From a virus, in the IMG/VR virus record IMGVR_UViG_3300037245_003526, positions 24,297 through 88,296 of that record: a stretch of DNA of 64,000 bases. One strand, 5' to 3'. Under the pieces are notes generated by a model. The model was given only the letters and a program-made list of their open reading frames with translations, ran no database searches and was not told where the DNA came from. The position numbers and the translations under genes are program-made. Shown in pieces: positions 6,493-52,522 of this stretch. Positions within the stretch are counted from its first letter, which is position 1; each line of letters begins with the position of its first letter.

Positions 6493-9400
6493 CTACCTTT
6501 CTACACCTATGGCTTTTAAATAAGCATTTAATAATCTTACAGACTCTGGAATTATAGATTGTTCTTTATCATCTTTCATAAAATCAGAATCTATCTTTGT
6601 CCTTATAAACTCATTTTTCAAATCAATACAATCACTCTTAGTAGTTAGAAACTCAAACAAATTTGCAGAAGCATCATGACCTGTTAAACACGCCATTTCC
6701 ATTTCTCCGCTTCTTTGACCTCCACCATGTTTTCTTCCTGCTAAAGGTTGTAATGTTTTTCTTGCATATGATCCTATTCCTCTAGCTGATAATCTTGTTT
6801 CAGAAATATGAACCATTTTGAAAAAGTACATATAACCTACAGCTATTCTATTCTTAATAATTTCTTTTGCTATAGGTTCGTACACTTCTCTTTTGAATTC
6901 AGTATTTGTATATTCAAGTGCTTTTCTGGTAACATCTAAGTCTACTGATTCAAATGGTGGTTGAATTAAAACAATACTATCAATAAACTTCTCAGTAATT
7001 TCTCCTGGAAGCTGTTGATTAAATTGTTCATAATACCATCCACCATCGGTTCTGTCAATAATTTTGATATAATTAAGTAAGTATAATTTTAACATTTTTT
7101 GTATTTGAGCATCATCTAATCCTTCAACTCTTTTAATTTTTCTATCAAGAATTAATTTCATATATTTTCTTAAATCAGAAAGTGACATAGCTAAATGTAA
7201 TTCATAAAGCTGTCCAATATTCATTCTGCTGATGATACCCAGAGGGTTTATACATATATCAACATGACGACCATCAGGTAATTGTGGCATTTTTTCATGA
7301 GGAACAATTGTTGAAATTACTCCCTTATTTCCATGTCTGTTTCCAACTTTATCACCAACCTGAATAGGTCTGAAAAATATTGCGAATAACTCTACGAAAA
7401 TTCCATTAATTTTTTCATTCTTAATTTTGAATTTTCCTATGTTTGCATGTGTGTCTAATTCATTATCTTTGATAAACTTTATTGCTTCTTTTTTAGGAAG
7501 GTGTTCTGATATTACCCTTCGTAAATCAGTCTCTTTCTCTTGCTGATCTGTAATTTTTTTCTCTACCCATTCTTTATATTCAGGAACATCTTCATTCCAT
7601 TCATTAGCAAATATATTACACTCTGTGATATACAAATTTTTTCTTGCATATAAATTCTTTTCCTGTTTGAAAATATCAAGAAACTCTTGCTGATTAGAAG
7701 GTATAGTTTTTATAATGGCATATGTATCATCCTTTTTAATTCTATCCTCTCTAGTAGGTAGTGGTTTAAAAACATTTTTATCCAAACTTAATAAGAGTTT
7801 ATGAGGTGGAATTGTAAATGACAAATCCATATAATGTACTGATGTAAGTACATTATCATCTCTTAGTCTTTCAGATATTACTATACCATCCTCATAGTTA
7901 TAACCGTACCACTCCATTACAGCAGTAAGTAAATTTTTTCCAATATTAATCTTATTGTCAGTACAATAATTACTCTCTGCTATTATCTGACCTTTACTTA
8001 CTTTGTCACCAAATTTGACATAAATTTTTAAGACATCAAGATTTGAAATATATATCTTTCTATAAGATATATTAAAAATATCTACTTCTTCATTATCATA
8101 AGCAAGAATTAGATATTTTTCATCTAAATAAACTACTTCACCATCCTCCTTTGCAACTTTAACAAACTGTGTTTTATCAGTATATAATCCTTCGCAACCA
8201 GATTGAATCATTGGTACATCAAAATTTTGTAACATGATTGCTTGTCTCATTTGTGATGATGCCATTTGAAGTCTGGTTTGATCATCGTGCTCTAAAAAAG
8301 GAACCATTGAAACTGGAATTGAAATTGGTTGCTTTTCAAGATATTCATTTGTAAAACGTAAATTTTCATCTAACGGAACATTTGGAATTAAGTTTTGTAA
8401 CACTCCACAATTTTCCCTATCAGGAGTATCCACCGGACAAATTCTACCAAACATTGTATCATTAATATCTCGTAAATGCTCAGGTACATTTTGTTTATTA
8501 AAACCTCCAGGACCAACTAAACTCGTTCTACTTAACTTTGTGAGTTCTTCTATTGGATTTATGGAAAAGTCAAATTGAATTATATCTGAAACATTACATT
8601 CTGAAAGAATTTGTGTAGAATTTACATTAAACTTTGGTTGTCTGGCAGTTCTATTAGTAATACAGAAATCGAAGATTATTTTACTTACCTTTGATAATAT
8701 CATATATTCAAAACAACGTATTCTCTTGTTCTGCATGTCTGTATCATCAAAACCTCCAGATTCCATTGTATAGATTAATTCATCAAGAACAGAATCAGTA
8801 TGAAAAAACCTTGAAGTCATAACATCACACTTCATAATAAGGTCTAATGCAAAAACTAAATCTTCACCCTTACCTTTGGCATTATATTTTGAATAATGTC
8901 TTCCTAACTCTTTAATAATATCATCTTGTGAAGTTCTCTTATTTTCATCATAAAAATCTAAAATATCTTTTAAGAAAGCACCATACATTCCATCATTACT
9001 AAAACTATCAGAATTCAAAGAAGATAGTTTAAATTTATTATTCATTTCCTCTACACCAAAATAAGCAAACATTACTAAATGTAAAGGAACCTTTCTTCCT
9101 AAAATACTAATATAAGTATATGGTGAATCTTTTCTATCTTCAAAAACCATTATTTGAGTAACGTTGGTTCTAAGTTTTATACTCTTTCCTCTTGTAACAA
9201 CTGGAATATCAAAAAACTGAAACTGAGGAATTTTTTTCCTGCCATTTATAATTATATAATTATTATCAATAAGTTTTGGAATTTGTATTGATAAATTTAT
9301 TAAAGACGTCCCTTTCTGAAGTCTAATTGATAATGTTTTTTTCAATGTTCTGCTTATATCACCTGTAGAAAATCTTGGTTCCTTAAATTCACATTCCACA

Positions 9401-9552
9401 ACTTCAAAACCAATATCAGCCACAGGTGCTATAATCACTTTAATATCTTCTAATAAAGAACTATATTCATTAGCTCTTATATCAAAAATATTCTTCTCTG
9501 CAAGTTTATAAACTGGATTAGCTATATTCAAAAGTACTCCTCCTTTCAACAA
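6493..9552 (-). CDS. Multisubunit RNA polymerase beta-subunit homolog (set 1).
   Basis: It carries GDKVGNRHGNKGVIS (the beta C-terminal catalytic-region signature) and MASSQMRQA (an NMQRQA-like motif). 1019 aa. Confidence 0.8.
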   Translation of the reverse strand: MLKGGVLLNIANPVYKLAEKNIFDIRANEYSSLLEDIKVIIAPVADIGFEVVECEFKEPRFSTGDISRTLKKTLSIRLQKGTSLINLSIQIPKLIDNNYIIINGRKKIPQFQFFDIPVVTRGKSIKLRTNVTQIMVFEDRKDSPYTYISILGRKVPLHLVMFAYFGVEEMNNKFKLSSLNSDSFSNDGMYGAFLKDILDFYDENKRTSQDDIIKELGRHYSKYNAKGKGEDLVFALDLIMKCDVMTSRFFHTDSVLDELIYTMESGGFDDTDMQNKRIRCFEYMILSKVSKIIFDFCITNRTARQPKFNVNSTQILSECNVSDIIQFDFSINPIEELTKLSRTSLVGPGGFNKQNVPEHLRDINDTMFGRICPVDTPDRENCGVLQNLIPNVPLDENLRFTNEYLEKQPISIPVSMVPFLEHDDQTRLQMASSQMRQAIMLQNFDVPMIQSGCEGLYTDKTQFVKVAKEDGEVVYLDEKYLILAYDNEEVDIFNISYRKIYISNLDVLKIYVKFGDKVSKGQIIAESNYCTDNKINIGKNLLTAVMEWYGYNYEDGIVISERLRDDNVLTSVHYMDLSFTIPPHKLLLSLDKNVFKPLPTREDRIKKDDTYAIIKTIPSNQQEFLDIFKQEKNLYARKNLYITECNIFANEWNEDVPEYKEWVEKKITDQQEKETDLRRVISEHLPKKEAIKFIKDNELDTHANIGKFKIKNEKINGIFVELFAIFFRPIQVGDKVGNRHGNKGVISTIVPHEKMPQLPDGRHVDICINPLGIISRMNIGQLYELHLAMSLSDLRKYMKLILDRKIKRVEGLDDAQIQKMLKLYLLNYIKIIDRTDGGWYYEQFNQQLPGEITEKFIDSIVLIQPPFESVDLDVTRKALEYTNTEFKREVYEPIAKEIIKNRIAVGYMYFFKMVHISETRLSARGIGSYARKTLQPLAGRKHGGGQRSGEMEMACLTGHDASANLFEFLTTKSDCIDLKNEFIRTKIDSDFMKDDKEQSIIPESVRLLNAYLKAIGVER

Positions 9553-9942: not shown

Positions 9943-12672
9943 CTAAACTCGCTCACCACATAATATTTTATCCATAATCCCTTTATAAAGTCCTGGTTGT
10001 AATATCCCTTTAATAATATGTTTTTTAGGATTTGAGAAAGCAAGACCCATAAGCCAGCTTTCATATGAGGGGACGGTTTGAACGGAATGAAACTGAGGAA
10101 CCAGTTTTTCACGATTTTTAAGAAGACGCCATTTATAAATTCCTACCCACATTAATTGAGAAACTATACACTCAAAGTGAACATGGTTAATAGTACGAGA
10201 AGTATTATAAGTTGTATAAAGATCATCAACTAATTTTGGTATGTCAACATTTTTACCAAACTTATGTAGTAATTTAGATGCCATTGATAAATCACTAACA
10301 ATATCCTGTTGTTTCAACTCATCTACTTCTTCACCTTCTCTTATATTTGCAACTCCACTAGTATGAAATGTTCTTAAAACTAATTGAGTATTACATTCAC
10401 CCATTGATTGAGCAGCAATAATTCCAACAAACTTTGTTTTAAGATCCTCATGTAATTTTCCATAACAAGTATGACATAATTTTTCATTTTTACAATATAT
10501 GGGACTTCTAACATTTATTGTTTTTCCAATAAAGTCCATATAATTATCTTTTGTAATAAGTACTAACTCATCATCTTCAGACATCCATTTATTTATAAGT
10601 TGTTTAGCTTTCTTATCATCACGTATAAATACTTTTAATAAATCCGTTGTACCACAATCTTCAATATCATAACTCAGTAATAAATTTGCTGCTGTAAAAA
10701 TCAATTTTCTTGATAAATAACCAGAAGCTCCAGTATTAAGAGCAACATCAAGAAGACCTTTTCTACTACCATAAGTGGAATTAAAGAAACCTTTTGGGGT
10801 CAAACCACTTATAAAACTATTTTTAATTGGTTCAGGAATTATTTGACCATTAAAATTTGATACAAAACCCCTTGATAAAACTATCTGTTTAGCTTGATCC
10901 CAACTACCTCTAGCTCCAGATTCAATCATATATGAGTATTTAAATCCACTTCTTAAAATATCCATAAGGTCTTTATTCTCAGTTGAGATTTTGAAAACTT
11001 GTTCTCTTATGGACCCAGACGAGTAAATATCATCTCTGACAGTATCAATACCTTCGATATGACAATCATCGAGAGATAGAGTTGGACCGAATAGGGTTGA
11101 GTATTTGAATCCTACGAACTTGATTTTGTCCAACACCTCTGCTGTAGTAGCTAAATTATACTTTCGATTAATATCATTTAATATTCTAATCAATCCTTTT
11201 GAATTAGTAGGTTCAATAATAAGTGGATAATCTTCTGGAAAACATTCATTGAATATTTTAATATCCTCTTGAATAGTTTCCCCTTTATATTCAACTTTTC
11301 TACTTAGTTTTGGAAATTTATTATTAGTAAGTGCATATATACCAAGAACCATATCCTGACTAGGTGTTGTAGTTAAACTGCCATTAGATGGGTTCTTTAA
11401 ATTCTGAGTAATTAACATTTTTTCAATTGCTTCTTGTTTAGTTTCTTCGCTAATAGGAACATATATGGCCATCTGATCTCCATCAAAATCAGCATTAAAT
11501 GGTGGGCAAGATAATGGATGAATTCTAATAACATTATCTAAAGATATTTTAATATAGTATGCTAACATACTAAGTTTATGGAGAGATGGTTGTCTGTTTA
11601 ATATACAAACTTCTCCACTACATATTTCTTCACATAAGGAAAATAAAACTGATGAGTTTGAAGCTATACACTCATCAATAAAATCAATAGATTGATTTAG
11701 CAATTTAAACTGTCCTGTATCTATTAGTTTCTTTGCTACTTCAATCTTAAAGATTTCTAAAAATATAATATAAGGAATTGAACATTGATCAATGTTTAAT
11801 GTTGGATCTGGTACTATGACTGCTCTACCAGAAAAATCTATTCTTTTACCAAGTATGTTTCCCCTGATAAGACCTTCTTTTTTAGAAAGTTTTTCAAGAA
11901 TATAAGCATATAATTCATTTACATCTTTTTGAAGTTGTCTGAAATGATTATAGAATAAGGTATTATCTCTTCTGACATCAATCAGCGATTCTTCAATAAC
12001 TTCTTTCTTTGTAAGAACCTGCATGTAATACTTATTAATCTTATCTGCATATTGTTCACTTCTTAAGGATCCTTTAGTAGCAGGTCTTAAATCAGCAGGT
12101 AATACAATAATACGATCTATTATTAATTCATCAATATTATCATATACAATCTGCCATGGTGAATCTTCCTCCTCGTCAATTGCTTTCTCTGCTAACTTAA
12201 ATACAAGCTCATGTATAGCTTCTAACCCATACCATGCTTCTCGTCCTTCTTCAATTTCATCTGAATTAGTAACTATTAGATCATTATTATCCTCATGTTC
12301 ATCATCCAAAACAAGGACAGATTTTTCATCTCTCATTAGCTTTTTTAAAGCTTCTTTTAATGAGGTACCAGCAAGATCAACTACCAAATCATAAAATACT
12401 GGATTGACCACAGGCACCGGAAGAACTATTTTTGCAAACCTTCTTCTTCGTTCATCACTATTAACAACATCAACACTACATATATTACATGTACCTCCAG
12501 AACCAGATGTTCCATAATATGTACCGCATTGACATGTGTAGTTTTTTAGTGGACCAAATATTTGTTCGCTAAATAGTCCTTCCGGATGAAATTTTTTCTT
12601 ATCCATTACCTTAGTTGTAGTTATTTCAGGAAGGTTTTCTGTAAATTCTGTAAACTTTAGTAGACTCGGCAT
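9943..12672 (-). CDS. Multisubunit RNA polymerase beta-prime-subunit homolog (set 1).
   Basis: It has an N-terminal zinc finger (CQCGTYYG...CNICS), the catalytic NADFDGD, and a trigger-loop region IIAAQSMGECNTQLVLRTFHTSG. 909 aa, ending soon after the trigger loop. Confidence 0.85.
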   Translation of the reverse strand: MPSLLKFTEFTENLPEITTTKVMDKKKFHPEGLFSEQIFGPLKNYTCQCGTYYGTSGSGGTCNICSVDVVNSDERRRRFAKIVLPVPVVNPVFYDLVVDLAGTSLKEALKKLMRDEKSVLVLDDEHEDNNDLIVTNSDEIEEGREAWYGLEAIHELVFKLAEKAIDEEEDSPWQIVYDNIDELIIDRIIVLPADLRPATKGSLRSEQYADKINKYYMQVLTKKEVIEESLIDVRRDNTLFYNHFRQLQKDVNELYAYILEKLSKKEGLIRGNILGKRIDFSGRAVIVPDPTLNIDQCSIPYIIFLEIFKIEVAKKLIDTGQFKLLNQSIDFIDECIASNSSVLFSLCEEICSGEVCILNRQPSLHKLSMLAYYIKISLDNVIRIHPLSCPPFNADFDGDQMAIYVPISEETKQEAIEKMLITQNLKNPSNGSLTTTPSQDMVLGIYALTNNKFPKLSRKVEYKGETIQEDIKIFNECFPEDYPLIIEPTNSKGLIRILNDINRKYNLATTAEVLDKIKFVGFKYSTLFGPTLSLDDCHIEGIDTVRDDIYSSGSIREQVFKISTENKDLMDILRSGFKYSYMIESGARGSWDQAKQIVLSRGFVSNFNGQIIPEPIKNSFISGLTPKGFFNSTYGSRKGLLDVALNTGASGYLSRKLIFTAANLLLSYDIEDCGTTDLLKVFIRDDKKAKQLINKWMSEDDELVLITKDNYMDFIGKTINVRSPIYCKNEKLCHTCYGKLHEDLKTKFVGIIAAQSMGECNTQLVLRTFHTSGVANIREGEEVDELKQQDIVSDLSMASKLLHKFGKNVDIPKLVDDLYTTYNTSRTINHVHFECIVSQLMWVGIYKWRLLKNREKLVPQFHSVQTVPSYESWLMGLAFSNPKKHIIKGILQPGLYKGIMDKILCGERV

Positions 12673-12984
12673 CTATCCCCCTTTATTAAAATTCTTATTC
12701 ATAAACTTTGAAAGTCCTCCGATTAAAAGAAGTAAATGTTTCTTAACCTCTTTAGAAACTACTTCAGGAAGATTTACCAATAGCTCTTCAACAATTTGCT
12801 TAATTTCACTTTTCTCTAGTTCAACTTTTTGTGCTTTGACCTCCTTTTTTATTTGTTCCATCATATTTGGTCTTTTGACAAATACATTCCCTAATTCCCC
12901 TTCTAGTTTTTCTTCTACAATTTCTTTTAAAAGATTTTTTATCAAATCTTTTGTTTCCTCACTTTCCATGTTATCTCCCTTCAT
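12673..12984 (-). CDS. Small K/E-rich helical protein that ends in Gly-Gly.
   Basis: 103 aa with C-terminus ...NFNKGG. It lies immediately downstream of the E1/E2-like cluster. Confidence 0.4.
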   Translation of the reverse strand: MKGDNMESEETKDLIKNLLKEIVEEKLEGELGNVFVKRPNMMEQIKKEVKAQKVELEKSEIKQIVEELLVNLPEVVSKEVKKHLLLLIGGLSKFMNKNFNKGG

Positions 12985-13442
12985 TAAAAATAATTAATTG
13001 GAAGTCTTCCTGCTTCTCCTTCATATCTGATATATTTTTCATCAAAATCCGGCCAAAAATGTGGCGAGTTTAAATTCCAAATCCTTAACATAAACCTTAT
13101 TGCCCATAATTGCTGTTTTAATAATTTCTCTTTCCCACTAATTACCATTCCTTTTAAATCATCTGAAATACAAAAATCCGCCTTTTTACAAAAATATTTA
13201 AAGCTTCCGCTAACTACTTTTCCTTTTGGAATATATGAGTTTGGATGTGCAACATCATATAATGTTATTCCTTCAAATTCATTATCAAATTTATTATTCA
13301 CAAGAATATCATATTTACTTATAATATAATTTTGATGAACCCACTTAATATCATATGTATTTTTTTTCCCTGTATGAAAATCATCAAATCTAATAAGTGC
13401 AGGTTTAATTGTTTCTCTCATTGTTTGTAATATTTCACTCAT
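12984..13442 (-). CDS. Hypothetical protein. It is a weak E2/UBC-like candidate.
   Basis: The ATG at 13440-13442 overlaps the TAA of the upstream E1-like gene as TAATG, a classic coupled-translation arrangement. The track's longer start at 13478 is probably wrong. It has a mid-protein HPN motif followed by a Cys (AHPNSYIPKGKVVSGSFKYFC) at roughly the position seen in UBC folds. Confidence 0.3.
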   Translation of the reverse strand: MSEILQTMRETIKPALIRFDDFHTGKKNTYDIKWVHQNYIISKYDILVNNKFDNEFEGITLYDVAHPNSYIPKGKVVSGSFKYFCKKADFCISDDLKGMVISGKEKLLKQQLWAIRFMLRIWNLNSPHFWPDFDEKYIRYEGEAGRLPINYF

Positions 13443-14329
13443 TATGCACCTCCTGTCTCTGGAATTAATTCTATACATATTCTTTCTTCATTTATTCCTA
13501 TTGTGACTAAATATTCTCTATAAGTAAATACATTATTAGCCATTTCTGATAGAATTCTCATAACATCTTCTGGTGATTGTAATTCATGCTTAGAAATAAT
13601 ATATGAACATAAAGAATCTTCTTTTCTACCAACATAAATAGGTATAGAAGAATCTTTATTTGCTTTTAATATCGCAGGTAAATTTTCAAAATGTCCTGTT
13701 AATTTTTCTTGCCCCTCAAAAGAAATATCATAAATTAAATCCGGTTGATTTTTATATTTTTTAACAGCTATCTGAAATTTATCATCATCATCATCACCCT
13801 TCAAATCTATACTATATTTAATTTCTCTTTCAATAAGTTCCTTAATTTTTCCTGTTCTAACATGTTCATATAACTTAAATGCTGCTCTTCTTATTTCATC
13901 CTTTGAAAAATCACTAGTATAAGTACCCCGTTTTGAAGTACCATATGTTACATATTTATTACAATCAATAACTAACTTATTGAATGAAATATAAAATCTA
14001 ATATCAATATAACCACTCCTATCACAGCTTTCATCTCTACAATCAAAAACCATATCATATGGAATTCTTTTACATGTAGGTTCATCAAATTTTTTATATA
14101 TAGGGTTTACCAATAAATCATCAGTCCTATCTTTTATCATATCACAAAGCGCATATACTTTTTTACGTTTTAAATCTCTAACTCTATAAATAGAGTTTTC
14201 TAAATTTGATTTTTCTACAAAATCATTATCAATAAATGAAAGTTTTTGTAATCCCGGTAAATGAGACATAAACTCAGCGAAGAATCCACCTAACGAACCA
14301 ACACCTATTATTAATACACTTTTAGTCAT
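13442..14329 (-). CDS. ThiF/MoeB/E1-like adenylation-domain protein (E1-like A). Its nucleotide-binding motif is degenerate.
   Basis: VLIIGVGSLGG (GxGxxG), then IDNDFVEKSNLENS where canonical E1s have SNLNRQ, then DMVFDCRDESCDR (DxxDN-like). A GGGAGTG ribosome-binding site precedes it. Confidence 0.6.
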   Translation of the reverse strand: MTKSVLIIGVGSLGGFFAEFMSHLPGLQKLSFIDNDFVEKSNLENSIYRVRDLKRKKVYALCDMIKDRTDDLLVNPIYKKFDEPTCKRIPYDMVFDCRDESCDRSGYIDIRFYISFNKLVIDCNKYVTYGTSKRGTYTSDFSKDEIRRAAFKLYEHVRTGKIKELIEREIKYSIDLKGDDDDDKFQIAVKKYKNQPDLIYDISFEGQEKLTGHFENLPAILKANKDSSIPIYVGRKEDSLCSYIISKHELQSPEDVMRILSEMANNVFTYREYLVTIGINEERICIELIPETGGA

Positions 14330-15495: not shown

Positions 15496-16176
15496 TTAAA
15501 TTACTACTCGTTGTGCGGGTCTTACATTCATCATTTCCATATCAAAGTAAACTTCTGAATTCTTACCCGACCGTACATTACCTACTCCAACTAAGTCATA
15601 AAAATACCAGCACATTATAAGAGCCACAGTTATATTAGCAAATAACACTTGTGGCTCAGATACTGATAGTTCTTCACAACTCATTTGATCCGGAGATCTA
15701 TCTTCCGGGTTGTCTATCTCGGGATGATAGTCAGTAAGAGATGGTGTTATTTTTTTACCATTCTCTCGTATATAAATTTGCACATTTCCGTCAACAAATT
15801 CATTTCCTCCTGAGATTAAAACAACTTTTTCTAATGTAGTACAATAATCAGAAACAATTTTTCTAGTCCTATGATTATCTACACATAAAAATATGACATC
15901 ATCCTCTTCTATAATTCTATTGACATTCCTTGAGGTAACATAGTCTGTACATGTTAAAACTTCTAAATTATCAAATATTGCAATAAGATCTCTTCTCTTA
16001 ATTCTTGCCTTATTACCAAAGTTTGAAAAGGATTGTCTTTCTTTATTCCTTTCCTTGTAACTCTTTCCATCGATCAAAGTAATATTAAATTCACCATCAA
16101 TATAATTAACAAATCTGAAAAGGTTATCGCATAATGCAGAACCAACTCCTCCTAAACCTATAACTTTGATGTTCAT
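15496..16176 (-). CDS. ThiF/MoeB/E1-like adenylating enzyme (E1-like B).
   Basis: VIGLGGVGS (GxGxxG), then LIDGKSYKERNKERQ (a D..E.N..RQ ATP-binding motif), then DDVIFLCVDNHRTRK (DxxDN..R), then VVLISGGNE. Confidence 0.7.
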   Translation of the reverse strand: MNIKVIGLGGVGSALCDNLFRFVNYIDGEFNITLIDGKSYKERNKERQSFSNFGNKARIKRRDLIAIFDNLEVLTCTDYVTSRNVNRIIEEDDVIFLCVDNHRTRKIVSDYCTTLEKVVLISGGNEFVDGNVQIYIRENGKKITPSLTDYHPEIDNPEDRSPDQMSCEELSVSEPQVLFANITVALIMCWYFYDLVGVGNVRSGKNSEVYFDMEMMNVRPAQRVVI

Positions 16177-32967: not shown

Positions 32968-33444
32968 CTAACTTAGAGAATACTGTGCAGCTCCAGAATC
33001 ATTCTCCCAAACTCTTATAAAGCTAACTGTTGGATTATTTTTAAAATTAGCATCTCTTAAATCTTCGCTAAGTTTAAAATATAAATGTTCAGCAAAAACT
33101 TCTGCTGTAGGATCTTGTCCTATAGAACTTATAGTCTGAGTACGATAATCTTGCTTCTTAAAAAATTCTATATTATCCTTATCAACTATATTTAAAATAG
33201 TTGTATGATCAAATACTTTAAGCAAATCATTTACAATTAACTTTAAGTCATGAAAATCAAGAACCATATCATTTTCATTTAATGAATCCGATTTTAATTC
33301 AACTTCAATCTTAAGATTATGTCCATGGATATTCTTACATAACCCTTTGTGTTTACTCAGTCTATGACCAATAGGGATTTTGAATATCTTTCTTAGTCTA
33401 TACATTATTCCTCCTTTATATTTCAGTATATTGTTTAATAACAA
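32968..33444 (-). CDS. queD: QueD/6-pyruvoyl-tetrahydropterin synthase-family protein (6-carboxytetrahydropterin synthase-like).
   Basis: HRL, then the zinc motif CKNIHGH (Cx3HGH), then DFHDLK, DHT.ILN, and QDPTAEVFAEHLY. These sit in the same order as in QueD/PTPS. Confidence 0.75.
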   Translation of the reverse strand: MLLNNILKYKGGIMYRLRKIFKIPIGHRLSKHKGLCKNIHGHNLKIEVELKSDSLNENDMVLDFHDLKLIVNDLLKVFDHTTILNIVDKDNIEFFKKQDYRTQTISSIGQDPTAEVFAEHLYFKLSEDLRDANFKNNPTVSFIRVWENDSGAAQYSLS

Positions 33445-34750
33445 ACTTATTTATATTTTTTAATTTATCTTTAAAATCATCAACTTTATTTTTTATTTCT
33501 GTTGTATCAGTACTAATTGTTAAAAGTTTTTTGATTCTATATTTTTCAGTTAATGTTTTAATCATTTCTACATCGACGCCAGATATTTCGGATATATATT
33601 TATAATTTTTTATAAGTTCTTCTTGAGTAAGAACTTTTCCATATTTAGGTGCGAGAAGTTCAGATAGTGGGCGTCTTATTTTTTCTAAACATTCTAATTC
33701 ATTAATATAGATATTTGCTTTTGAAATCTCTGTATTTAACATATCATTATTAGTTGATCTAAACATTTTAAAAGTTTCAACTAACATTGTATCAATTGGA
33801 GTAACCTGTACATTACCATCAAGATCAACAGTATTTGTCTCAAATGGAACACTTCCTGTAACTGCATCTTTGATATTCTTATCAAGTTCCTTGAATATTT
33901 TAAATCTATTTCTTTGTTTTAATACTGAGAATACTATATTAGTTCCTTTTTCACCATTAGATGAATCAACATAACCAATATCTCCATTTTCTAATTGTTT
34001 TTTAATATTCTTCTTTTTTAATAAAGCTGCATCAAATCCTTTTCCTGGTGGCCAACTTTTAACTGTTATAGTACTTTTTACATTATTTTTTACTGTTTTA
34101 CCAACTACACTAATTTTCGCTTTACCAGTTGTTAAAAGCTGTTCAAGTTCCTCATCTGTTGCAGTTATTTTACAGTTAGAAATAGGTTTAATTATAGGTT
34201 TTGATAATTTTGGATTTAATTTCCAGTATAATCTTTTCCTTAAATCTTCTAATTCATAACAAGGAACCTTCGTACTATATCCAAAACCTATTCCTTGTAA
34301 GTATTCTTTTCCTAAAAGACATAATGGAAACATAGTAGGAAGATAAGAAGGTTCATCATCTAATTCAGATTCAACAAAATCAACATATTTTATATATTTG
34401 AATGCCATATTATTTATAAAACTTGATAATTTACATTCAGTGTATCTTTGTGCTGCTGGGGGTGATGGTATTACACCCAAATTATTACCAAAATTTCCTT
34501 GACCTATAAGAAATCCTTGTTTAACCAATTGAACTATGGTTCCGTATGTATCTCCGTGAGGATGAAACTTTGCTATACATGTTCCATTAACTCTAGCACT
34601 TTTAACCTCTTTATCCCTTGCTATCATATAAGACGTCAATAATATTCTTCTTTCTACTGGTTTAAGTCCGTCTATAGATAATGGTAAAGCTCTAGATTTA
34701 TTTACATATGCACCATAACTTGCATAACATTTTTTTATTAAATTATCCAT
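33416..34750 (-). CDS. Type II topoisomerase DNA breakage-reunion subunit (GyrA/ParC N-terminal, T4 gp52-like).
   Basis: DGLKPVERRIL...SARVNGTCIAKFHPHGDTYGTIVQLVKQGF matches the GyrA/ParC/gp52 signature. Confidence 0.75.
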   Translation of the reverse strand: MDNLIKKCYASYGAYVNKSRALPLSIDGLKPVERRILLTSYMIARDKEVKSARVNGTCIAKFHPHGDTYGTIVQLVKQGFLIGQGNFGNNLGVIPSPPAAQRYTECKLSSFINNMAFKYIKYVDFVESELDDEPSYLPTMFPLCLLGKEYLQGIGFGYSTKVPCYELEDLRKRLYWKLNPKLSKPIIKPISNCKITATDEELEQLLTTGKAKISVVGKTVKNNVKSTITVKSWPPGKGFDAALLKKKNIKKQLENGDIGYVDSSNGEKGTNIVFSVLKQRNRFKIFKELDKNIKDAVTGSVPFETNTVDLDGNVQVTPIDTMLVETFKMFRSTNNDMLNTEISKANIYINELECLEKIRRPLSELLAPKYGKVLTQEELIKNYKYISEISGVDVEMIKTLTEKYRIKKLLTISTDTTEIKNKVDDFKDKLKNINKFVIKQYTEI

Positions 34751-34772
34751 ATATCTCCTTTTTAAAAGTATG

Positions 34773-34887
34773 AGGGTCAGCCAGGATTTGAACCTGGATG
34801 GCTAGCCGGAAGGTTTATTTCTCTGGTTACTATTATCCAGCTCCGTTTGCCTACTAATAGCGTCTTCTCCAATTTCGCCACTGACCC
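34773..34887 (-). tRNA. tRNA-like element, about 115 nt. It has a canonical acceptor stem, a class-II-like D-arm and a T-arm, but the internal anticodon/variable region is too long.
   Basis: GGGTCAG/CTGACCC gives a 7-bp acceptor stem. The D-arm is GCG-AAATTGGAGAAGA-CGC, the same 3-bp D-stem type as tRNA-Leu. The T-arm is CCAGG-TTCAAAT-CCTGG, followed by a discriminator T. About 62 nt lie between the D-arm and T-arm, against the expected 22-37, and no clean 5-bp/7-nt anticodon stem-loop is found. Confidence 0.4.
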
Positions 34888-34909: not shown

Positions 34910-35101
34910 TCAACCTTTTTCTCTAAGTCTCTCTTGTTCTCTAGCTGCTTTTTTAAGAGCGTGCTTTTCTTCAATCTTCTCTTGTTTAAGTCTTCTCCTT
35001 TCTTTATTTATTACTGATCTACCTTCAGCTTTATAGCGGATGCGTGATTTCTTTTTTTGTCCTCTACCAATTTTTCTTCCTTTTCCTCCAGCGGCTGCCA
35101 T
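34910..35101 (-). CDS. Very basic small protein, possibly nucleic-acid binding.
   Basis: 63 aa, about 45% K/R (GKGRKIGRGQKKKSRIRYK...). Confidence 0.35.
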   Translation of the reverse strand: MAAAGGKGRKIGRGQKKKSRIRYKAEGRSVINKERRRLKQEKIEEKHALKKAAREQERLREKG

Positions 35102-45054: not shown

Positions 45055-48000
45055 TTATCTCCAAATCATTAAACTTATAAAGTATGAATTTAATAAATCT
45101 CTTACCGGTGCATGTTTAGGAGGTCTATACTTAGCACCACCTGTTTGAATAATATCAGATAATATTTCATTCTTTGTTACATGATCATCAGATAAAGGAC
45201 CAAAAAATTCTTCTAGTAAAGAAGGACAATTATAAGAAATAAATGAATACGTATCTAATTCACCCATTCTTTGACCACCGTCTTTTCTTTTGCCGGCAGT
45301 AGGTTGAAATGTCTTGGATGTAATAGGTCCAGTACTTCTAACATGAAGTTTTTCAGATCCTATATGTTCAAGTTTAAGCATATACAAATATCCAACTGCT
45401 ACTGGATATTTTGTTGTTGTATTATACTCTGGAAGTCTTAATTTATATCCAGGTTTTAATTTAAGTGCTTTTAAAGTAGCTAAAATTTCTTTATAAGATG
45501 GAGCTTTAAAAGGAGGAATTAATAATGTCATACTCCCGCTAGCTTTTACTTGACTAATAAATTTAGTAAACATAGCAGCAGACATACCTCTAAATTTAGA
45601 TATAAGACCCTTACTAAATTCTTTATTTTTAGTAGTATCAAGTTTAGGTAAGACTTGATTCAATAATGCCACTACTTTTGGTTTATTATTTAATTTTATT
45701 ATTTGTCTTCCTAACTCATGCGAAATTAAACCTGTATATGTTTCATAAAACTGACCAACATTCATTCTTCCTATAATACCTACAGGATTTAAAATAATAT
45801 CTATTCGATCTCCAGTTGGGGAAATAGGCATATTTTCATCTTTTTCAATTAATGAAATAATACCCTTTGCTCCATGTCTATTAGTTAACTTATCACCAAC
45901 CATAACTGGTAGCTCTTGTTCTACTTTAAATCTTATAACAACACCTTTTACATTTTCACCCCTATTAGTAAATTTTTCTTTAGGTTTTAGTTTATATCTT
46001 TTTCTGGTTCTATCAACAAGTGGTTTCAATTCTGGAAATATACTTTCTCTTAAATTAGAAAACACTTCAATATCAACAATTTTCCCACCTGGTGATTTTT
46101 TAATATAGTGTCCTGCTATGATATCAACACCTTCTTCTTCCTCGTCATAACCTATTAATTGCTCGATTTCACCCACTGTTTTTCGTATTAACACTTCACC
46201 TTTTTCAGTTTCAGCACCTAACTCAACCATTTTTATAATTCTATCACCTTTATCAATTTGTACTTCTTCAACTATTCCATGAAGTGATGTAAGGAGTTCT
46301 TTCTTAACAACTGATTCTGAAATAACAATACCATCCTCAAAATTATGACCCTTATAAGGCATAAATGCTACACATAAAGTTCTACCTAAAGCTATAGATC
46401 CAGAAGTAATACATGAACCCTCAGCAATAATTTGTTTATTTTTAACAACCTGACCAACTTTAACTACCGGTTTGAAAACACTTAAAGTATTTTTTCCAGC
46501 TCCTGATCTAAGATGAACTGGTACTATATCAATCTTATTAGTCTTCCCACCTGTGCAAGTAACACTAATAAAATCCTCAGTAATATTTTTTATTTTTCCA
46601 TTACATGGTGATCTTTTAATAAATGCATCAGATAAGACACTAGTTAATATTGATTCATATCCTGTTTGAATAGATGGTGTTTCTGGATTCTTTAGTGGTA
46701 CAGACTGTCTTTGCTGATTACATCCAAACATAACTCTGTTACCATCATTATTTTCTACAAAAGGAATTTGAGCTGCAGTAGTTGAAAGTAAACCAGAATC
46801 TTCTCCTTCCTTAATACCTTTTGGAGTTATTAAACCTCTTGCTGATGTAATATATGCATCAACAGTAAGCTGCTGAACTATTCCTACATTTTCACCTTCT
46901 GGTGTATCTAATGTATCAATATTTCCATACATAGATGTATGGACATTTCTTCCTTCCATTTGAATTGCCGTCTTATCAGGTATTCCTCCAATTGATTTAC
47001 CTACTGGAGATATTCTTGTTTTGGTAGCCATTTCTTCAACTGGATTTGCATATTCCATATCAACAACAATTTCTGAATTTATAAATTCGCTTAATACTTT
47101 TGTTGGAGATAATTCAAAAGTTGCTTTCTTGTTTCCGGATAATACTTGCTCTTTATATTCTGTATATGAAGCTAATATTTGTTTTTGTGCTAGATGTACT
47201 AAAATCTCAGAGTTTCTTATTCTTTGATTTGAGACATCATTTCTTTTTTGTGTAAATCCTTCAACTGCTTTAGACGCCATGTATTTCATTATTAAATCAA
47301 GATTACTTGGTAATTGTTGATTTATAAGAACTTGTTTAGCAACCGGATCAACAATATTTTCTAAGTTTGATTGGATTAAAAATGTAGAATTTATTCTTCC
47401 GCTCATTTTTATTATAAGATCATTAAAATATTCTTTTGTACCAAATTCTTTATCTATTTTAAATGAAGAAATATTAGCATGTATAAAAGATTGACATAAT
47501 TCTTCTTGAAGTTTAGTTTCAGCTCCATTGAAAACTATATATTTATTCGGTTCAATCAAAGATCTAAATTTTTCCTCTTTTGGACGTTCCTCTTCAAACT
47601 TATGGGTTAGATTATATAATTTTAATGTTTCTTTAAAACCAAAACTAAAAGCAAGTAGTATCATTAATGGAAGTTTATAAGAACCAATATAAGCTTCTAA
47701 GTATTCTTCTCTTATAGTTCTCTTACTCCATATATGAAATGTAGAATAACTACTTTCAAATTTTGAGTCAAATTGTTTAGGAAATGAAATAGGATTAAGA
47801 ACTATTTGATTAATTAAACATTTCTTTCTACCATTAACAAGAAATGTTCCATCTTCTGATATCTTAGGTACATCTATTCGAACTACATGTTTTTTATTAT
47901 ACATACCTGTTAATGTTACTTCGACAGTATTTATATCTGATCTACTTAGTTCACCCATATTAGTTGGTTTTTCAATTATTTTAATACTCTTATAAGTTAG

Positions 48001-49143
48001 TGGAACCTCTTTAGTTTTTAGAACCTTAAATGAGTTTGCCATATCCTTTTTAAGATTAGTTTCAAAATCAATTTTTCTCTTCTCAAATAAATGTTCAGGA
48101 GACTTATTATCAACCATTTTTGGAGCATTAGATAATTGTATTACTACATCTCCTGAAGTTGTTTCAGTCTTTTGAGGTTTTAGTAGTTCATCAGCATATT
48201 GTCTATCAACTACTTTTAATGAAAGTAATTTCTTAGCTTTAGGAATAGATTTAGCAGTTCTAGATGCCTTTTCAATATCACCTGAAGTCCTGTATAATAT
48301 TGAAGCAGTTGCAATTTCTCTAGCATCATTGTCATCAACTAAATCATAAGTAACCTTATCCATTTCTTTTTTATTTTTTGTAAAAAAGTCATAGATAGCA
48401 GCAAAAATTTTAGACCTATTAGAAGGACTAACGTCTCCATCAATTCTTCTCATTATAGAGGATGTAGCAAGACTAATTTTCTTATGTTCTTCTTCTTCTG
48501 TATCTATAAGTTTTATATTCTTTAAAAATTGTTTAACCCTTGTAAATTTGAAGTCTTTGTCTTTTATAAGCAGTCTATAATTAGATGAAGATTCATTTAT
48601 AATATTCATAATCAAATGATCATAATTAATTTCTTCCTTCTTTAAATCAAGTAATAAAGGAAATATCTTTCTATCAATTAGACTCTTTGTTTCTTTAGTA
48701 GCATCAACTGAATATAAAAGAACTTTCTGATAATTTGGAGGGAAACTACTTAGAACTTTTAAAAGCATATTTTTAATTAAGAAACCTGCTCTTTGTCTAT
48801 AATTAGTAACCTTGTATGATATGTCTATTGTATTTAAAAAACCGGAAAGGTCATATACTAAATTTTGTCCCTTTGGTACTTTCTGGTTAGAACTTAAAGC
48901 AAGTAAACTATGACTTTTATATAAATTCTTTATATCAGGAGTTAAATAAGAAATTGGAATCTTTGTACGCGGAACTATTACATACCTAACATCTATTCGT
49001 TTCAAATTCAACTTTTCGTAATCATCTATAAAAGATGAATTTTCACTAAAATAGATTAATAAAAAAGGTTCTTTTCTATTTTGAGGAAAACGAATTCCAT
49101 CTACTAGATGTGTATATTGTCTTATTGATTTGAATTGAATCAT
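45055..49143 (-). CDS. Multisubunit RNA polymerase beta-subunit homolog (set 2).
   Basis: GDKLTNRHGAKGIIS, and CNQQRQS-like and other beta-region motifs. 1362 aa. Confidence 0.85.
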   Translation of the reverse strand: MIQFKSIRQYTHLVDGIRFPQNRKEPFLLIYFSENSSFIDDYEKLNLKRIDVRYVIVPRTKIPISYLTPDIKNLYKSHSLLALSSNQKVPKGQNLVYDLSGFLNTIDISYKVTNYRQRAGFLIKNMLLKVLSSFPPNYQKVLLYSVDATKETKSLIDRKIFPLLLDLKKEEINYDHLIMNIINESSSNYRLLIKDKDFKFTRVKQFLKNIKLIDTEEEEHKKISLATSSIMRRIDGDVSPSNRSKIFAAIYDFFTKNKKEMDKVTYDLVDDNDAREIATASILYRTSGDIEKASRTAKSIPKAKKLLSLKVVDRQYADELLKPQKTETTSGDVVIQLSNAPKMVDNKSPEHLFEKRKIDFETNLKKDMANSFKVLKTKEVPLTYKSIKIIEKPTNMGELSRSDINTVEVTLTGMYNKKHVVRIDVPKISEDGTFLVNGRKKCLINQIVLNPISFPKQFDSKFESSYSTFHIWSKRTIREEYLEAYIGSYKLPLMILLAFSFGFKETLKLYNLTHKFEEERPKEEKFRSLIEPNKYIVFNGAETKLQEELCQSFIHANISSFKIDKEFGTKEYFNDLIIKMSGRINSTFLIQSNLENIVDPVAKQVLINQQLPSNLDLIMKYMASKAVEGFTQKRNDVSNQRIRNSEILVHLAQKQILASYTEYKEQVLSGNKKATFELSPTKVLSEFINSEIVVDMEYANPVEEMATKTRISPVGKSIGGIPDKTAIQMEGRNVHTSMYGNIDTLDTPEGENVGIVQQLTVDAYITSARGLITPKGIKEGEDSGLLSTTAAQIPFVENNDGNRVMFGCNQQRQSVPLKNPETPSIQTGYESILTSVLSDAFIKRSPCNGKIKNITEDFISVTCTGGKTNKIDIVPVHLRSGAGKNTLSVFKPVVKVGQVVKNKQIIAEGSCITSGSIALGRTLCVAFMPYKGHNFEDGIVISESVVKKELLTSLHGIVEEVQIDKGDRIIKMVELGAETEKGEVLIRKTVGEIEQLIGYDEEEEGVDIIAGHYIKKSPGGKIVDIEVFSNLRESIFPELKPLVDRTRKRYKLKPKEKFTNRGENVKGVVIRFKVEQELPVMVGDKLTNRHGAKGIISLIEKDENMPISPTGDRIDIILNPVGIIGRMNVGQFYETYTGLISHELGRQIIKLNNKPKVVALLNQVLPKLDTTKNKEFSKGLISKFRGMSAAMFTKFISQVKASGSMTLLIPPFKAPSYKEILATLKALKLKPGYKLRLPEYNTTTKYPVAVGYLYMLKLEHIGSEKLHVRSTGPITSKTFQPTAGKRKDGGQRMGELDTYSFISYNCPSLLEEFFGPLSDDHVTKNEILSDIIQTGGAKYRPPKHAPVRDLLNSYFISLMIWR

Positions 49144-50176: not shown

Positions 50177-52522
50177 TTATACCTCCAATCCTGATAAAGG
50201 ATCGTTATTTATAATATCATTTAACATTTCTCTTTTAATTAATGTGACTGCTCCACCAGTATGGAAGCTACGCATAATTAATTGAGTCCCCCTCTCTCCA
50301 ATTATTTGAGAAGCTAATATTCCAATAAAAGGAGTTCGGTGTCTATTTAATAATTTTCCATAACATGTATGACAAATTTTAGCTGACTTACAAAATACTG
50401 GACTTCTTAAATTAACTATATCTCCAACTTTAACTTTTGATGCTTCAATAGTCATTAATTTTCCATTTTTAATAACATATCTACCAGATAATCTACTTAA
50501 TAAATCTGCAGTAAGTTTAAGATCTAAAGTACGTTTAGTACCACAATCTTTAAGATTTCTATTAATCTCAACTGTATTTAATAAGTAAGCCAATTTTCTC
50601 GACATATATCCTGTATCAGCAGTATTAATAACACGGTCAATAGTTCCTTTACGAGCTCCTTGAGATGCATTGAAATATTCTACATTAGTAAGACCATCTG
50701 CAAATGAACCTGAAATAGGATCAAGAATATTTCCATCAGAGTCTCCAATAATTCCCTTAGCTACAAGAATTTGCATTGGTTGACCCCAACCCTTTGTTGA
50801 TCCAGATTCAACTAAATCACCAAATCCTGTATCTTTTAATTCTTTTTCTACTATTTTTTGAGCTTCAGCAAGTAATTTTTCTGCTTCTTCAGGAGTAGCA
50901 GTTTTTAATTTATCTTTTATTACATATATTTTTTTAGGGAGTTCAAAAGTATCTAAAGTCAAGCTTGGAGCTCCTATAGTTACCCATTTAAATCCTTCCT
51001 CTTTTAATCTATCAATAACCTTCATTGTTACTTCTTGACCTAGTTTATTAAAAATCTTTTCTATCAATTCGCTAACAACTTTTTTAGTAGCTATCTCATT
51101 TACAAATGGTATAACCTTAGGTAAACAACTATTGAATATTGCTCTTCCTGCTGTAGAAGTAACTCCTCTATATCTTACAGGTCTATAAATTTCACCTGTA
51201 TATTTTTGTAGTTCTTCAGTAGTTACCGCAATTGATGGTTTAGAAACTTTTTTATTTTTTGTTAAAATATAAAACCCACCCCACATTTCCTTCTTAAAAT
51301 CAAAAGCAAATTTTCTAGATGAAGTTCCGCTGGTAAGTCTCATCATTTTTTCTCTTGCTTCTGTTTGTGCTTCATCAGTAAGAGGGTGAAATACAGCAAC
51401 TGTGTCACCGTCAAAGTCAGCATTATGAGCCTCGACTTGGACAGTTGACATTAATATAGTATTACCTCTATGTAAAACAGGATTATAACCTAAATAACTT
51501 TGTGTTTGTAAAACAGGATCTCGTTTTAGAACTATTACTCTACCCTTCATTGCAACTTCAGTAGCTTCATAAAATAACTCATATAAAGTCACTGGTATTT
51601 TATCACCTTCTTTAATAGATTTAATAATTTTTTTAACACTATCAACTGATAATTCAAGACCTGTATATTTTTCTACCTCTTCTGCTAGTATATTTTTATC
51701 CACTTTTCCTGAATATAATAATCTATGCATAAGAAATGGTTCGAATAAACCAACTGCCATTCGTAATGGAATACCTGCTTCATTAGTCTTCATTTCTGGA
51801 CCTGGACTAATAACTGCTCTTCCACTAAAGTCTACACGTTTACCAAGCATAAGCTTTCTTACAATACCAGACTTTTTACTTATTTTAGATCTAATAAAAT
51901 TATCATGTTCTAAAATAGCATTTTGTAATGCATAATTTAAAAGATCATAAAGCGGACCAGAACCACTAGAACGAACTTGAGATGCTCTTCTCATAACTGT
52001 AAGATAAACATCATTCAACGGATCTATCATCCAATTACCATCGTCTTGTCGTAATGCTGGTCTTAAGTCAGGAGGAATGACTGGTAACTTATCTAAAAAA
52101 ATTGTATCTCTTTTATTCTCTTTTTTTAGAAAATCTATAAGCTTATCTCTCGTTTCTGTTTCCCCGCGAAATTTAATCTTTGGAAACATTTTTATAAACT
52201 CTTTAATTCCAGTTACTCCACCTCTATCTACCATCACAAGTTTTTTCTCTTCATCTAAAATAAACGATCTTTCAGTTGATAAAAATTTTTCTATTTTCTT
52301 ATCGAGTTGAAGTATTATTCTATAAGCGGCAGGATGAATTATTTTAGCATTTAATTCAATATATGAAAAGATCAATCTTCTTTCTTTAGAACCTTCTGGA
52401 CCGAAAATTCTTTCACTAAAAAGACCATTCTCATGAAATCCTCCTGATCTATCAGTGGATAACATAGATGTAACCGGATTAAGATTCCTAATAAAACCTT
52501 TCAAAGAAATAAGTTTTAGCAT
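50177..52522 (-). CDS. Multisubunit RNA polymerase beta-prime-subunit homolog (set 2).
   Basis: The catalytic NADFDGD, and a trigger-loop region CHTCYGKLLNRHRTPFIGILASQIIGERGTQLIMRSFHTGGA. 781 aa. Confidence 0.85.
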   Translation of the reverse strand: MLKLISLKGFIRNLNPVTSMLSTDRSGGFHENGLFSERIFGPEGSKERRLIFSYIELNAKIIHPAAYRIILQLDKKIEKFLSTERSFILDEEKKLVMVDRGGVTGIKEFIKMFPKIKFRGETETRDKLIDFLKKENKRDTIFLDKLPVIPPDLRPALRQDDGNWMIDPLNDVYLTVMRRASQVRSSGSGPLYDLLNYALQNAILEHDNFIRSKISKKSGIVRKLMLGKRVDFSGRAVISPGPEMKTNEAGIPLRMAVGLFEPFLMHRLLYSGKVDKNILAEEVEKYTGLELSVDSVKKIIKSIKEGDKIPVTLYELFYEATEVAMKGRVIVLKRDPVLQTQSYLGYNPVLHRGNTILMSTVQVEAHNADFDGDTVAVFHPLTDEAQTEAREKMMRLTSGTSSRKFAFDFKKEMWGGFYILTKNKKVSKPSIAVTTEELQKYTGEIYRPVRYRGVTSTAGRAIFNSCLPKVIPFVNEIATKKVVSELIEKIFNKLGQEVTMKVIDRLKEEGFKWVTIGAPSLTLDTFELPKKIYVIKDKLKTATPEEAEKLLAEAQKIVEKELKDTGFGDLVESGSTKGWGQPMQILVAKGIIGDSDGNILDPISGSFADGLTNVEYFNASQGARKGTIDRVINTADTGYMSRKLAYLLNTVEINRNLKDCGTKRTLDLKLTADLLSRLSGRYVIKNGKLMTIEASKVKVGDIVNLRSPVFCKSAKICHTCYGKLLNRHRTPFIGILASQIIGERGTQLIMRSFHTGGAVTLIKREMLNDIINNDPLSGLEV

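Follow-up and report, generated by a model that had tools for sequence, protein, structure and literature searches.

A probable non-decoding, tRNA-shaped RNA gene with a conserved oversized arm in a jumbo phage genome

Introduction

Stable transfer RNA (tRNA)-like RNAs of unassigned role have long been known in phages, the classic examples being rnaC and rnaD (species 1 and 2) of phage T4, which are 119-139 nt in length and for which the T4 record assigns no function. An element that can be set beside them lies in a 64,000-nt stretch of viral DNA (IMG/VR record IMGVR_UViG_3300037245_003526, positions 24,297 to 88,296), the whole of which is referred to below as the window. The element occupies window positions 34773-34887 on the minus strand. 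In an earlier note, made from the letters alone, it was described as having a perfect acceptor stem, a D-arm and a T-arm around an oversized interior.

Other RNAs of related design have been described. The transfer-messenger RNA (tmRNA, encoded by ssrA) has a tRNA-like acceptor and T-arm module without an anticodon, together with a short reading frame that stops in a hairpin loop. In engineered tRNA scaffold RNAs, a foreign structured RNA replaces the anticodon arm, and the cell's tRNA enzymes mature and stabilise the product. The Y-RNA-like RNAs (YrlA), partners of Ro/Rsr, end in a Ro-binding stem, and their tRNA-like part is closed. They are non-decoding RNAs of ~100-120 nt that mimic the acceptor, D and T arms of tRNA, and some of them are phage-encoded (PMC4201824, PMC7824862).

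Here, evidence is presented that the element is, on balance, a functional, non-decoding, tRNA-shaped small RNA gene that would act through a conserved arm. No description of the element family, or of a wider class of oversized RNAs with the same tRNA-Leu frame, was found in the literature. As a phage RNA of this kind it is a tractable case, since its fold is defined by covariation, its conserved 'business end' is separable from a replaceable frame, and it is present in unrelated phages.

Results and discussion

The tRNA frame and the 62-nt interior

The RNA is numbered 1-115, from window position 34887 down to 34773, and its sequence is 5'-GGGUCAG UG GCG-AAAUUGGAGAAGA-CGC UAUUAGUA GGCAAACGGAGCUGGAUAAUAGUAACCAGAGAAAUAAACCUUCCGGCUAGCC AU CCAGG-UUCAAAU-CCUGG CUGACCC U-3'. 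Names of the form L0xx-L3xx denote comparison loci that were fetched, of which L082, L244 and L325 carry the element. The parts of the window copy are as follows.

34773..34887, minus strand: whole tRNA-shaped RNA gene, 115 nt, with exactly the ends of the match to the Rfam tRNA model RF00005; kept in L082, L244 and L325
34881..34887, minus strand: 5' strand of the acceptor stem, GGGUCAG (positions 1-7), forming 7/7 pairs with positions 108-114
34860..34878, minus strand: D-arm of class II (tRNA-Leu) type (positions 10-28), stem GCG/CGC, loop AAAUUGGAGAAGA
34852..34859, minus strand: linker UAUUAGUA, 8 nt (positions 29-36), in the place of the anticodon arm
34800..34851, minus strand: long irregular hairpin (positions 37-88) with helices H1', H2 and H3
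34816..34822, minus strand: hypervariable segment within a bulge of that hairpin (positions 66-72), differing in L082, L244 and L325
34781..34797, minus strand: T-arm CCAGG-UUCAAAU-CCUGG (positions 91-107), with a canonical T-loop
34773..34780, minus strand: 3' strand of the acceptor stem, CUGACCC (positions 108-114), and discriminator U115; no CCA is encoded

The 7-bp acceptor stem, the D-arm with G18G19 and the T-arm with a loop of the UUCRANY type were all recovered by direct reading, by a frame search and in the Rfam alignment. In a generic frame search of both strands, this was the sole instance in the 64 kb of a T-arm closed by a 7-bp acceptor stem. What the earlier note had read from the sequence was correct throughout. 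The acceptor is perfect, the T-arm is present with a canonical loop, and the D-arm (UG-GCG-AAAUUGGAGAAGA-CGC, positions 8-28) is close to that of tRNA-Leu, as its UGGCGRAAUUGG motif is common to bona fide tRNA-Leu genes in the fetched loci (e.g. L090, L094 and L162). The distance between D-arm and T-arm, put there at about 62 nt, is exactly 62 nt (positions 29-90). No anticodon stem-loop can be drawn, as had been stated, and a strict parse for an anticodon arm (5-bp stem, 7-nt loop, U33 and a purine at 37) returned none in the window element or in L082. Two points had been left unmentioned, namely that the gene is on the minus strand and that the interior is its most conserved part.

The D-loop holds A14, A15 and G18G19, and the frame includes the elbow contacts U8/A14, A15/U48 and G18G19/T-loop. 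The calculated minimum free energy of the element is -34.5 kcal/mol (z=-2.19 versus shuffles). The element almost certainly does not decode, because it has no 7-nt anticodon loop and a 10-nt loop tips a 12-bp arm. As this arm ends 2 nt before the T-stem, it takes the position of a class II variable arm. Hence, the most apt description of the element is that of a tRNA-Leu frame with the anticodon arm reduced to a linker and the variable arm enlarged to 52 nt.

Structure of the long arm

A model-free search for every helix compatible with all four known sequences of the family (the window copy, L082, L244 and L325), together with a formal count of pairs, defined three nested helices in the arm. 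Helix H1' (37-39/86-88) includes G38-C87, which is A38-U87 in relatives. Helices H2 (43-47/77-81, CGGAG/UUCCG) and H3 (48-51/62-65, CUGG/CCAG) correspond to the two alternative helices pointed out in the earlier note, and both proved real, the former being invariant and the latter showing a compensatory change of U49-A64 to C49-G64. All 60 cells of the pair count are paired in the four sequences, as compared with 28-48% when the 3' partners were slid by 1-3 columns, and RNAalifold independently predicted the same nested helices. The T-stem also covaries, C91-G107 being G-C in L244 and L325.

The apical loop of the arm (52-61, AUAAUAGUAA) is 10 nt long and reads AUARUAGUAA across the family. 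The arm 37-88 also has a 3x4 internal loop and an 11-nt A-rich bulge (66-76), in which positions 66-72 are the sole freely varying segment. The architecture supported by these comparisons is therefore a tRNA frame, an 8-nt linker, one nested 52-nt arm, 2 nt (89-90) and the T-arm.

A stem implied by the Infernal alignment, 29-33/53-57, pairs in all four sequences, but only via two A-to-G changes, which would leave wobble pairs in any case. It was rejected as an anticodon stem on account of this wobble-only support, and a 7-bp complementary run is expected roughly by chance in 62 nt. The linker (29-33) and the apical loop (53-57) might form a pseudoknot.

Comparison with described tRNA-like RNAs

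The element shares with class II tRNA-Leu the 7-bp acceptor stem, the 3-bp D-stem, the UGGCGRAAUUGG-type D-loop, the canonical T-arm, the equivalents of U8, A14, A15, G18G19 and U48, and an extra arm that ends 2 nt before the T-stem. It differs in having no anticodon stem-loop, in the U73 of the window copy, in a D-loop that is 1-2 nt longer in the window, L082 and L244, and in the extra arm, which spans 52 nt as opposed to the usual 13-21 nt and contains three helices, a bulge of 11 nt and a loop of 10 nt.

Among the phage RNAs, T4 rnaC (139 nt) is similar in that a true T-arm (CCGGG-UUCGAAU-CCCGG) and an acceptor-like closing helix surround a non-tRNA interior. However, rnaC has no Leu-type D-arm and is not scored by the Rfam tRNA model, and the T4 RNAs lie in a tRNA cluster whereas the element is inside a protein operon. 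As there is no sequence similarity to either rnaC or rnaD, both were rejected as homologues and are regarded as analogues only.

The likeness to tmRNA lies in the acceptor and T-arm module without an anticodon, in a long helix that departs from the body at the variable-arm position and, possibly, in a short frame that stops in a hairpin loop. The element is, however, about one third the size of tmRNA, has no G3.U70 pair and no pseudoknots, and retains a full D-stem. In size and in mimicking three tRNA arms and the tRNA elbow without decoding, it resembles YrlA, but its termini are in the acceptor stem, a permuted layout relative to the YrlA plan. It has no YrlA match in Rfam, and no Ro/TROVE domain was detected when 46 proteins of the window were scanned with Pfam. 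With the engineered tRNA scaffolds the element would share a design principle, the differences being that it is natural rather than a laboratory construct and that its cargo is in the variable-arm position.

Relatives and conservation of the interior

The family consists of the window copy, that of a sister phage (L082), and those of L244 and L325, which are in unrelated lambdoid-type phages. The topoisomerase of L082 is 91% identical to that of the window. A pattern scan of three sequence collections for a Leu-type D-loop and a T-loop separated by a gap too long for a normal tRNA identified L244, and an IMG/VR scan for the L244-type interior then identified L325. L244 is a 6.2-kb contig binned to a gammaproteobacterial metagenome-assembled genome, and its element is in a temperate-phage-like context with SSB and a tyrosine integrase. 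In L325, an IMG/VR contig of 54 kb, the element is in an early region with a YqaJ-type exonuclease.

At four-fold degenerate sites in three flanking genes, 43/308 positions (~14%) differ between the window and L082. Despite this neutral divergence, element positions 1-66 are identical in the two (P about 5e-5). Eight positions of the element differ in all. The four interior differences are all at positions 67, 68, 71 and 72, two others affect the variable T-loop positions 57 and 59, and the change of C108 to U turns G7-C66 into G7.U66, which keeps the pairing. The last is the discriminator, which is U in the window copy and A in L082, L244 and L325. This pattern reflects purifying selection acting on the interior's sequence, predicted loops included, which excludes a pseudogene and argues against a functionless intron.

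In L244 and L325, few interior positions differ from the window copy and there are no insertions or deletions. The linker UAUUAGUA is the same in the four sequences except for A30G in L325, and the D-stem is unchanged in all four. The acceptor stems, on the other hand, are GGCAGAG/CUCUGCC in L244 and GAGGCGG/CCGCCUC in L325 versus GGGUCAG/CUGACCC in the window. Because these three different stems are all fully paired, the acceptor helix has been kept by compensatory changes. As judged by this comparison, the interior is the conserved core of the element and the acceptor stem would need only to pair. The occurrence of the same interior inside three different complementary acceptor stems, in three independent lineages, indicates decisively that the element is more than a chance arrangement. 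L244 also encodes a 3' CCA.

The L325 copy (minus strand, about 12893-13007) has the T-loop UACAAAU, with A at the near-universal U55, and a 6-bp T-stem, which may reflect either a relaxed elbow contact or an assembly variant.

No member beyond the four was found when an nhmmer profile of the interior was run over all fetched loci, and IMG/VR scans with two interior patterns gave none beyond the L244-type carriers already counted. Exact-pattern scans of IMG/VR gave no matches for the 3' half and one chance match for the D-arm. Neither the locus nor the L244 element had a BLAST match among cultured phages and plasmids. The hosts appear to be bacterial, because L244 is binned to a gammaproteobacterium and its element is in a lambdoid-type phage. 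Members of the wider class of oversized RNAs described below adjoin tmRNA genes, a bacterial feature.

Output of tRNA and RNA finders

In default mode, ARAGORN reported no tRNA or tmRNA anywhere in the window, and Rfam at gathering settings with default filters gave no match in it. With permissive filters, RF00005 matched 34773-34887 (minus strand) with 30.5 bits, the gathering score being 29 (E=1.6e-4 in a search of 451 nt), with all three arms aligned and the interior fitted as insertions of 21 nt and 31 nt. Elsewhere in the window, the permissive Rfam scan gave only three matches, all at chance level. A canonical tRNA with other boundaries was not found at the site, as default ARAGORN was empty and the Rfam match has the ends given above. 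The tmRNA mode of ARAGORN and Rfam likewise reported no tmRNA for the element, and no Rfam family covers it. Group I introns are self-splicing, exceed about 200 nt and contain a group I core. There was no Intron_gpI match at the element, the interior of which is just 62 nt, in a scan that did detect such an intron in L115.

When allowed to insert introns, ARAGORN called a tRNA-Gly(UCC) with a 41-nt intron between the 5' strand of the anticodon stem and the loop. The same mode called a tRNA in 167/500 (33%) copies of the element with a shuffled interior and, in a set of 107 oversized elements, in 77% of the real interiors versus 74% of the dinucleotide-shuffled ones. The tRNA-Gly call thus carries no information, since shuffled interiors are called at a similar rate, and ARAGORN in this mode fits almost any interior once acceptor stem, D-arm and T-arm are given. 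The consequence for annotation is that intron-mode tRNA calls on oversized Leu-frame elements are meaningless. Of the three possibilities raised in the earlier note (insertion of a structured element into a tRNA, a tRNA of non-standard type, and a tRNA-like RNA serving another purpose), the last is favoured. The intron form of the first is not supported, the call being a chance one that involves a mismatched stem.

Proposed function and alternatives

The element fails the defining tests of a decoding tRNA, an intron-containing tRNA, a tmRNA and YrlA. The reading favoured here, by a modest degree, is that of a functional, non-decoding, tRNA-shaped small RNA gene that would act through its conserved arm. 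A scan for a promoter or terminator at the element found nothing above chance, though such a scan says little about a phage with RNA polymerases of its own. In view of this lack of signals, the element would have to be cut from a polycistronic transcript, and it would be co-transcribed with its operon neighbours. The 5' end would be cut by RNase P and the 3' end trimmed by RNase Z or exonucleases. CCA would be added by the host CCA-adding enzyme, except in L244, where it is encoded. The tRNA-like L-shape would then keep the RNA stable, the frame serving as a built-in handle for processing and stability. The arm conserved in sequence would be the working part, and might bind in trans a conserved partner that the hosts of very different phages share.

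In the relatives with A73, the frame would probably also let leucyl-tRNA synthetase (LeuRS) charge the RNA. The window copy has the leucine identity features A14, A15, G18, G19, U90 (equivalent to position 48) and the T-loop UUCAAAU. E. coli tRNA-Leu from which the anticodon and variable arms have been removed is still leucylated if A73 and the D/T-loop contacts are intact (PMC9976931). A73 is present in three of the four family members (L082, L244 and L325), whereas the window copy has U73. Charging by LeuRS is therefore plausible for the family as judged from these identity elements but cannot be claimed for the window copy, and hence would not be a function shared by all copies. Should LeuRS charge the oversized Leu-frame RNAs of the wider class described below, which their retained identity elements suggest, they would represent a new kind of non-decoding RNA that is aminoacylated; otherwise they would be 'tRNA scaffolds' of natural origin, delivering structured RNA modules. 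In both cases there are implications for the conflict between phage and host over the translation machinery.

Several points weigh against a trans-acting RNA of this kind. The U73 of the window copy would make it a poor LeuRS substrate by E. coli rules. No RNA-related protein was found either in the 64-kb window or as a common feature of the three genomic contexts, and the Pfam scan of the 46 window proteins, besides Ro/TROVE, also gave no SmpB, RNA ligase, CCA-adding enzyme or aminoacyl-tRNA synthetase. The four sequences amount to two deep lineages, so that each compensatory change may be a single event, and the control with shuffles is modest, as 15/500 reach the observed score. A purely cis-acting role, the foremost alternative, is also conceivable, though unlikely.

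Under a cis-acting role, the element would be a processing signal at which RNase P and RNase Z cut between the upstream and downstream cistrons, fixing where the downstream mRNA begins or how stable or well translated it is, with the RNA as a by-product. Its position is in keeping with this, as in all three contexts it lies between co-directional open reading frames (ORFs), with the next ribosome-binding site and start codon within about 16-22 nt, and it has no promoter or terminator signal of its own. In addition, a ribosome-binding site could be sequestered by a pairing like that of the internal CGGAG/UUCCG helix. However, such a signal needs just the acceptor and T-arm, yet those vary freely while the 62-nt interior is the part most conserved across unrelated phages. 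The downstream genes are unrelated among the contexts (topoisomerase A, a 60-aa ORF and a 116-aa ORF), and relatives express the same topoisomerase gene without the element. A cis role is thus disfavoured because it is the interior, and not the surface recognised by RNase P, that is conserved.

Improbable to a greater degree is a miniature tmRNA, i.e. a chargeable tRNA-like domain with a hairpin in the variable-arm position bearing a five-codon message, RCA-AAC-GGA-GCY-GGA (A/T-N-G-A-G), and a triple stop. It would rescue or hijack stalled ribosomes, or compete with host tmRNA, adding a tag that does not trigger degradation; in a weaker form, it would be a leucine carrier, aminoacylated but lacking an anticodon, and would either feed or block some process outside the ribosome. 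The frame UAG-UAG / GCA-AAC-GGA-GCU-GGA / UAA-UAG-UAA is indeed present, and in L244 and L325 the first stop is changed from UAA to UAG, which stays a stop, and GCU to GCC, which is synonymous. As in E. coli ssrA, where the message starts with GCA-AAC and ends with UAA-UAA in a loop, the stops are in the apical hairpin loop. The long arm occupies the variable-arm position, and structures of the tRNA-like domain with SmpB orient tmRNA helix 2 like a class II variable arm.

However, the triple stop was noticed post hoc. A run of three in-frame stops turns up in 2.6% of dinucleotide shuffles and 3.9% of stretches of equal size on the strand, and just 1/107 interiors of the wider class has one. 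Local alignments of the interiors to E. coli ssrA are at chance level, shuffles scoring as high or higher in 14-88% of trials. There is no G3.U70, the 3-70 pair being G-C in the window, L082 and L325 and C-G in L244. Every member has a full D-stem and none has the tmRNA pseudoknots, and, as noted above, neither ARAGORN in tmRNA mode nor Rfam gave a match. The would-be resume codon lies within 37-39/86-88 and its first base is changed (GCA to ACA in L244 and L325), and two of the 'silent' changes are equally explained by base-pair compensation. Nor was smpB found in the window by the Pfam scan.

Given very little credence is an intron-containing tRNA-Gly(UCC), from which removal of a 41-nt intron (35-75) would leave a 74-nt tRNA with the anticodon stem AUUAG/CUAGC and the loop CUUCCGG. 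ARAGORN with intron detection makes exactly this call, and the intron would pair with the anticodon loop (CGGAG/UUCCG), as introns of archaeal and eukaryotic pre-tRNAs do. However, such calls are about as frequent on shuffled interiors. The required stem, 30-34/83-87, is mismatched in every sequence (A30.C87 in the window and L082, A33.G84 in L244 and L325), shows no covariation and competes for G86 and C87 with H1' (37-39/86-88), the helix that covariation favours. The spliced product would have a 3-nt variable loop and a Leu-type D-arm, and would not have the C2-G71 pair typical of bacterial tRNA-Gly. The element does not form two 3-nt bulges with a 4-bp helix between them, and in the fold backed by covariation the proposed splice sites are in the 8-nt linker and the 11-nt bulge, set apart by H1', the internal loop and the 5-bp H2. 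Moreover, L082 matches the window at all of the proposed intron's first 31 nt even though neutral divergence is 14%, and the hosts appear to be bacterial. Bacteria are not known to have a tRNA splicing endonuclease.

A functionless, decaying tRNA-Leu pseudogene or attachment-site remnant, for which the rejection by default tRNA detectors and the window's U73 in place of the A73 of tRNA-Leu could be cited, has next to no probability given strong purifying selection against a 14% neutral background, helices kept by compensatory changes in three lineages, retention of the same interior in unrelated phages, the presence of both halves of the frame and the absence of an integrase beside the window copy. 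The element is thus not a pseudogene or a tRNA with an intron and, as far as the evidence goes, not a tmRNA either.

Genomic setting

The source of the window is a jumbo phage. The window has ~30% GC, all of its genes are on the minus strand, and it encodes a split type II topoisomerase, a ribonucleotide reductase and a RecA-like protein. The topoisomerase protein occurs also on a contig of 0.2-1 Mb. The element lies between the following two genes.

34910..35101, minus strand: 63-aa basic ORF, Lys/Arg-rich, upstream of the element and co-directional, with its stop codon 22 nt before the element and no Pfam match
33416..34750, minus strand: topoisomerase II A-subunit gene, downstream of the element (Pfam DNA_topoisoIV, E=8e-46)

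The topoisomerase A gene is preceded by a GGAG ribosome-binding site at 34755-34758, and its ATG, at 34750, is 22 nt after the element. Homologues of topoisomerase A number in the hundreds and are found, at 40-57% identity, on large viral contigs, although a first single-protein scan of IMG/VR with topoisomerase A had given no match. A small basic ORF directly upstream of topoisomerase A is also found elsewhere in this phage group (L006, 2320-2490, and L009). In L006, 10 nt without an RNA gene separate the end of this homologue from the start codon of topoisomerase A. No tRNA-like element was present at this site in any of the 79 syntenic loci fetched by protein alignment. Because the site is empty in these syntenic relatives, the element represents a lineage-specific insertion between the basic ORF and topoisomerase A.

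Multisubunit RNA polymerase genes of the beta-like and beta'-like types form two separate sets in the window (6493-9552, 9943-12672, 45055-49143 and 50177-52522, all minus strand), as is the case in jumbo phages whose transcription is independent of the host. Genes for the GTP cyclohydrolase FolE2 (5497-6351), a QueD-like 6-pyruvoyl-tetrahydropterin synthase (32968-33444) and two radical-SAM proteins (942-1961 and 20947-21978), also all on the minus strand, suggest a 7-deazaguanine (preQ0-type) pathway of nucleobase modification; the QueD gene is directly downstream of topoisomerase A. Two proteins of the ThiF family (E1-like adenylyltransferases) are encoded near each other (13442-14329 and 15496-16176, minus strand).

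A wider class of oversized RNAs with the tRNA-Leu frame

The oversized Leu-frame pattern gave at least 120 matches in each of the three collections, namely metagenomes (loci L084-L203), species-representative genomes (L205-L324) and IMG/VR (L327 onward). Among the matches listed, properly closed frames of 101-131 nt are in the majority, and 79-83% have A as the discriminator. Just 2/107 elements of this wider class were called as tRNAs by default ARAGORN, in both cases an ordinary tRNA-Leu gene lying in duplicated sequence. Of 100 oversized Leu-frame elements, 41% have a hairpin that stops exactly 2 nt short of the T-stem, as compared with 11% of their own shuffles. BLAST of one wider-class element (L156) matched only short tRNA-arm fragments in cultured phages. 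Default tRNA finders miss a large population of oversized tRNA-Leu-frame RNAs, of which a single phage often has many copies. The window element belongs, as one family, to a large phage population of tRNA-frame RNAs that are structured and probably non-decoding.

Some contigs carry many copies of one frame. L107 (JACCDY010195119.1) has at least 11 (e.g. 917-1025, 1839-1951, 2955-3042, 4027-4122, 4331-4485 and 5903-6019) and L095 at least five, with identical acceptor (AGUCAGG/CCUGACU), D-arm and T-arm. The interiors of these paralogues are unrelated to one another and are 74-160 nt long by one count and about 30-100 nt by another, i.e. a constant frame with variable cargo, and some are capped by a UUCG tetraloop in place of the anticodon loop. 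Copies with the AGUCAGG frame are located among tRNA arrays, tmRNA genes and a GOLLD RNA. In the 170-kb contig L122, a GOLLD RNA at 3124-3531 (minus strand, 319 bits) and a tmRNA at 2581-2971 (plus strand) are near such an element. The group I intron of L115 is at 1802-2010 (minus strand), inside an array of 15 tRNAs.

A tRNA-Leu(UAG)-like subgroup includes L086:7244-7349, L150, L107:917-1025, L256 and L285. On direct reading, its anticodon-type stem covaries and a hairpin of ~20-22 nt is inserted in the anticodon loop. UGUC at the tip of the inserted hairpin pairs with GACA in the loop of the variable arm, with two compensatory changes, and this looks like an intramolecular kissing or pseudoknot contact.

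The element in L133 (minus strand, 102 nt) has a frame of the AGUCAGG type with the acceptor AGUCGGG, a canonical anticodon arm and a 9-bp variable arm. Its anticodon loop is AUCUAGA, with the anticodon CUA, and the tRNA may suppress amber codons in a phage that has recoded a stop codon.

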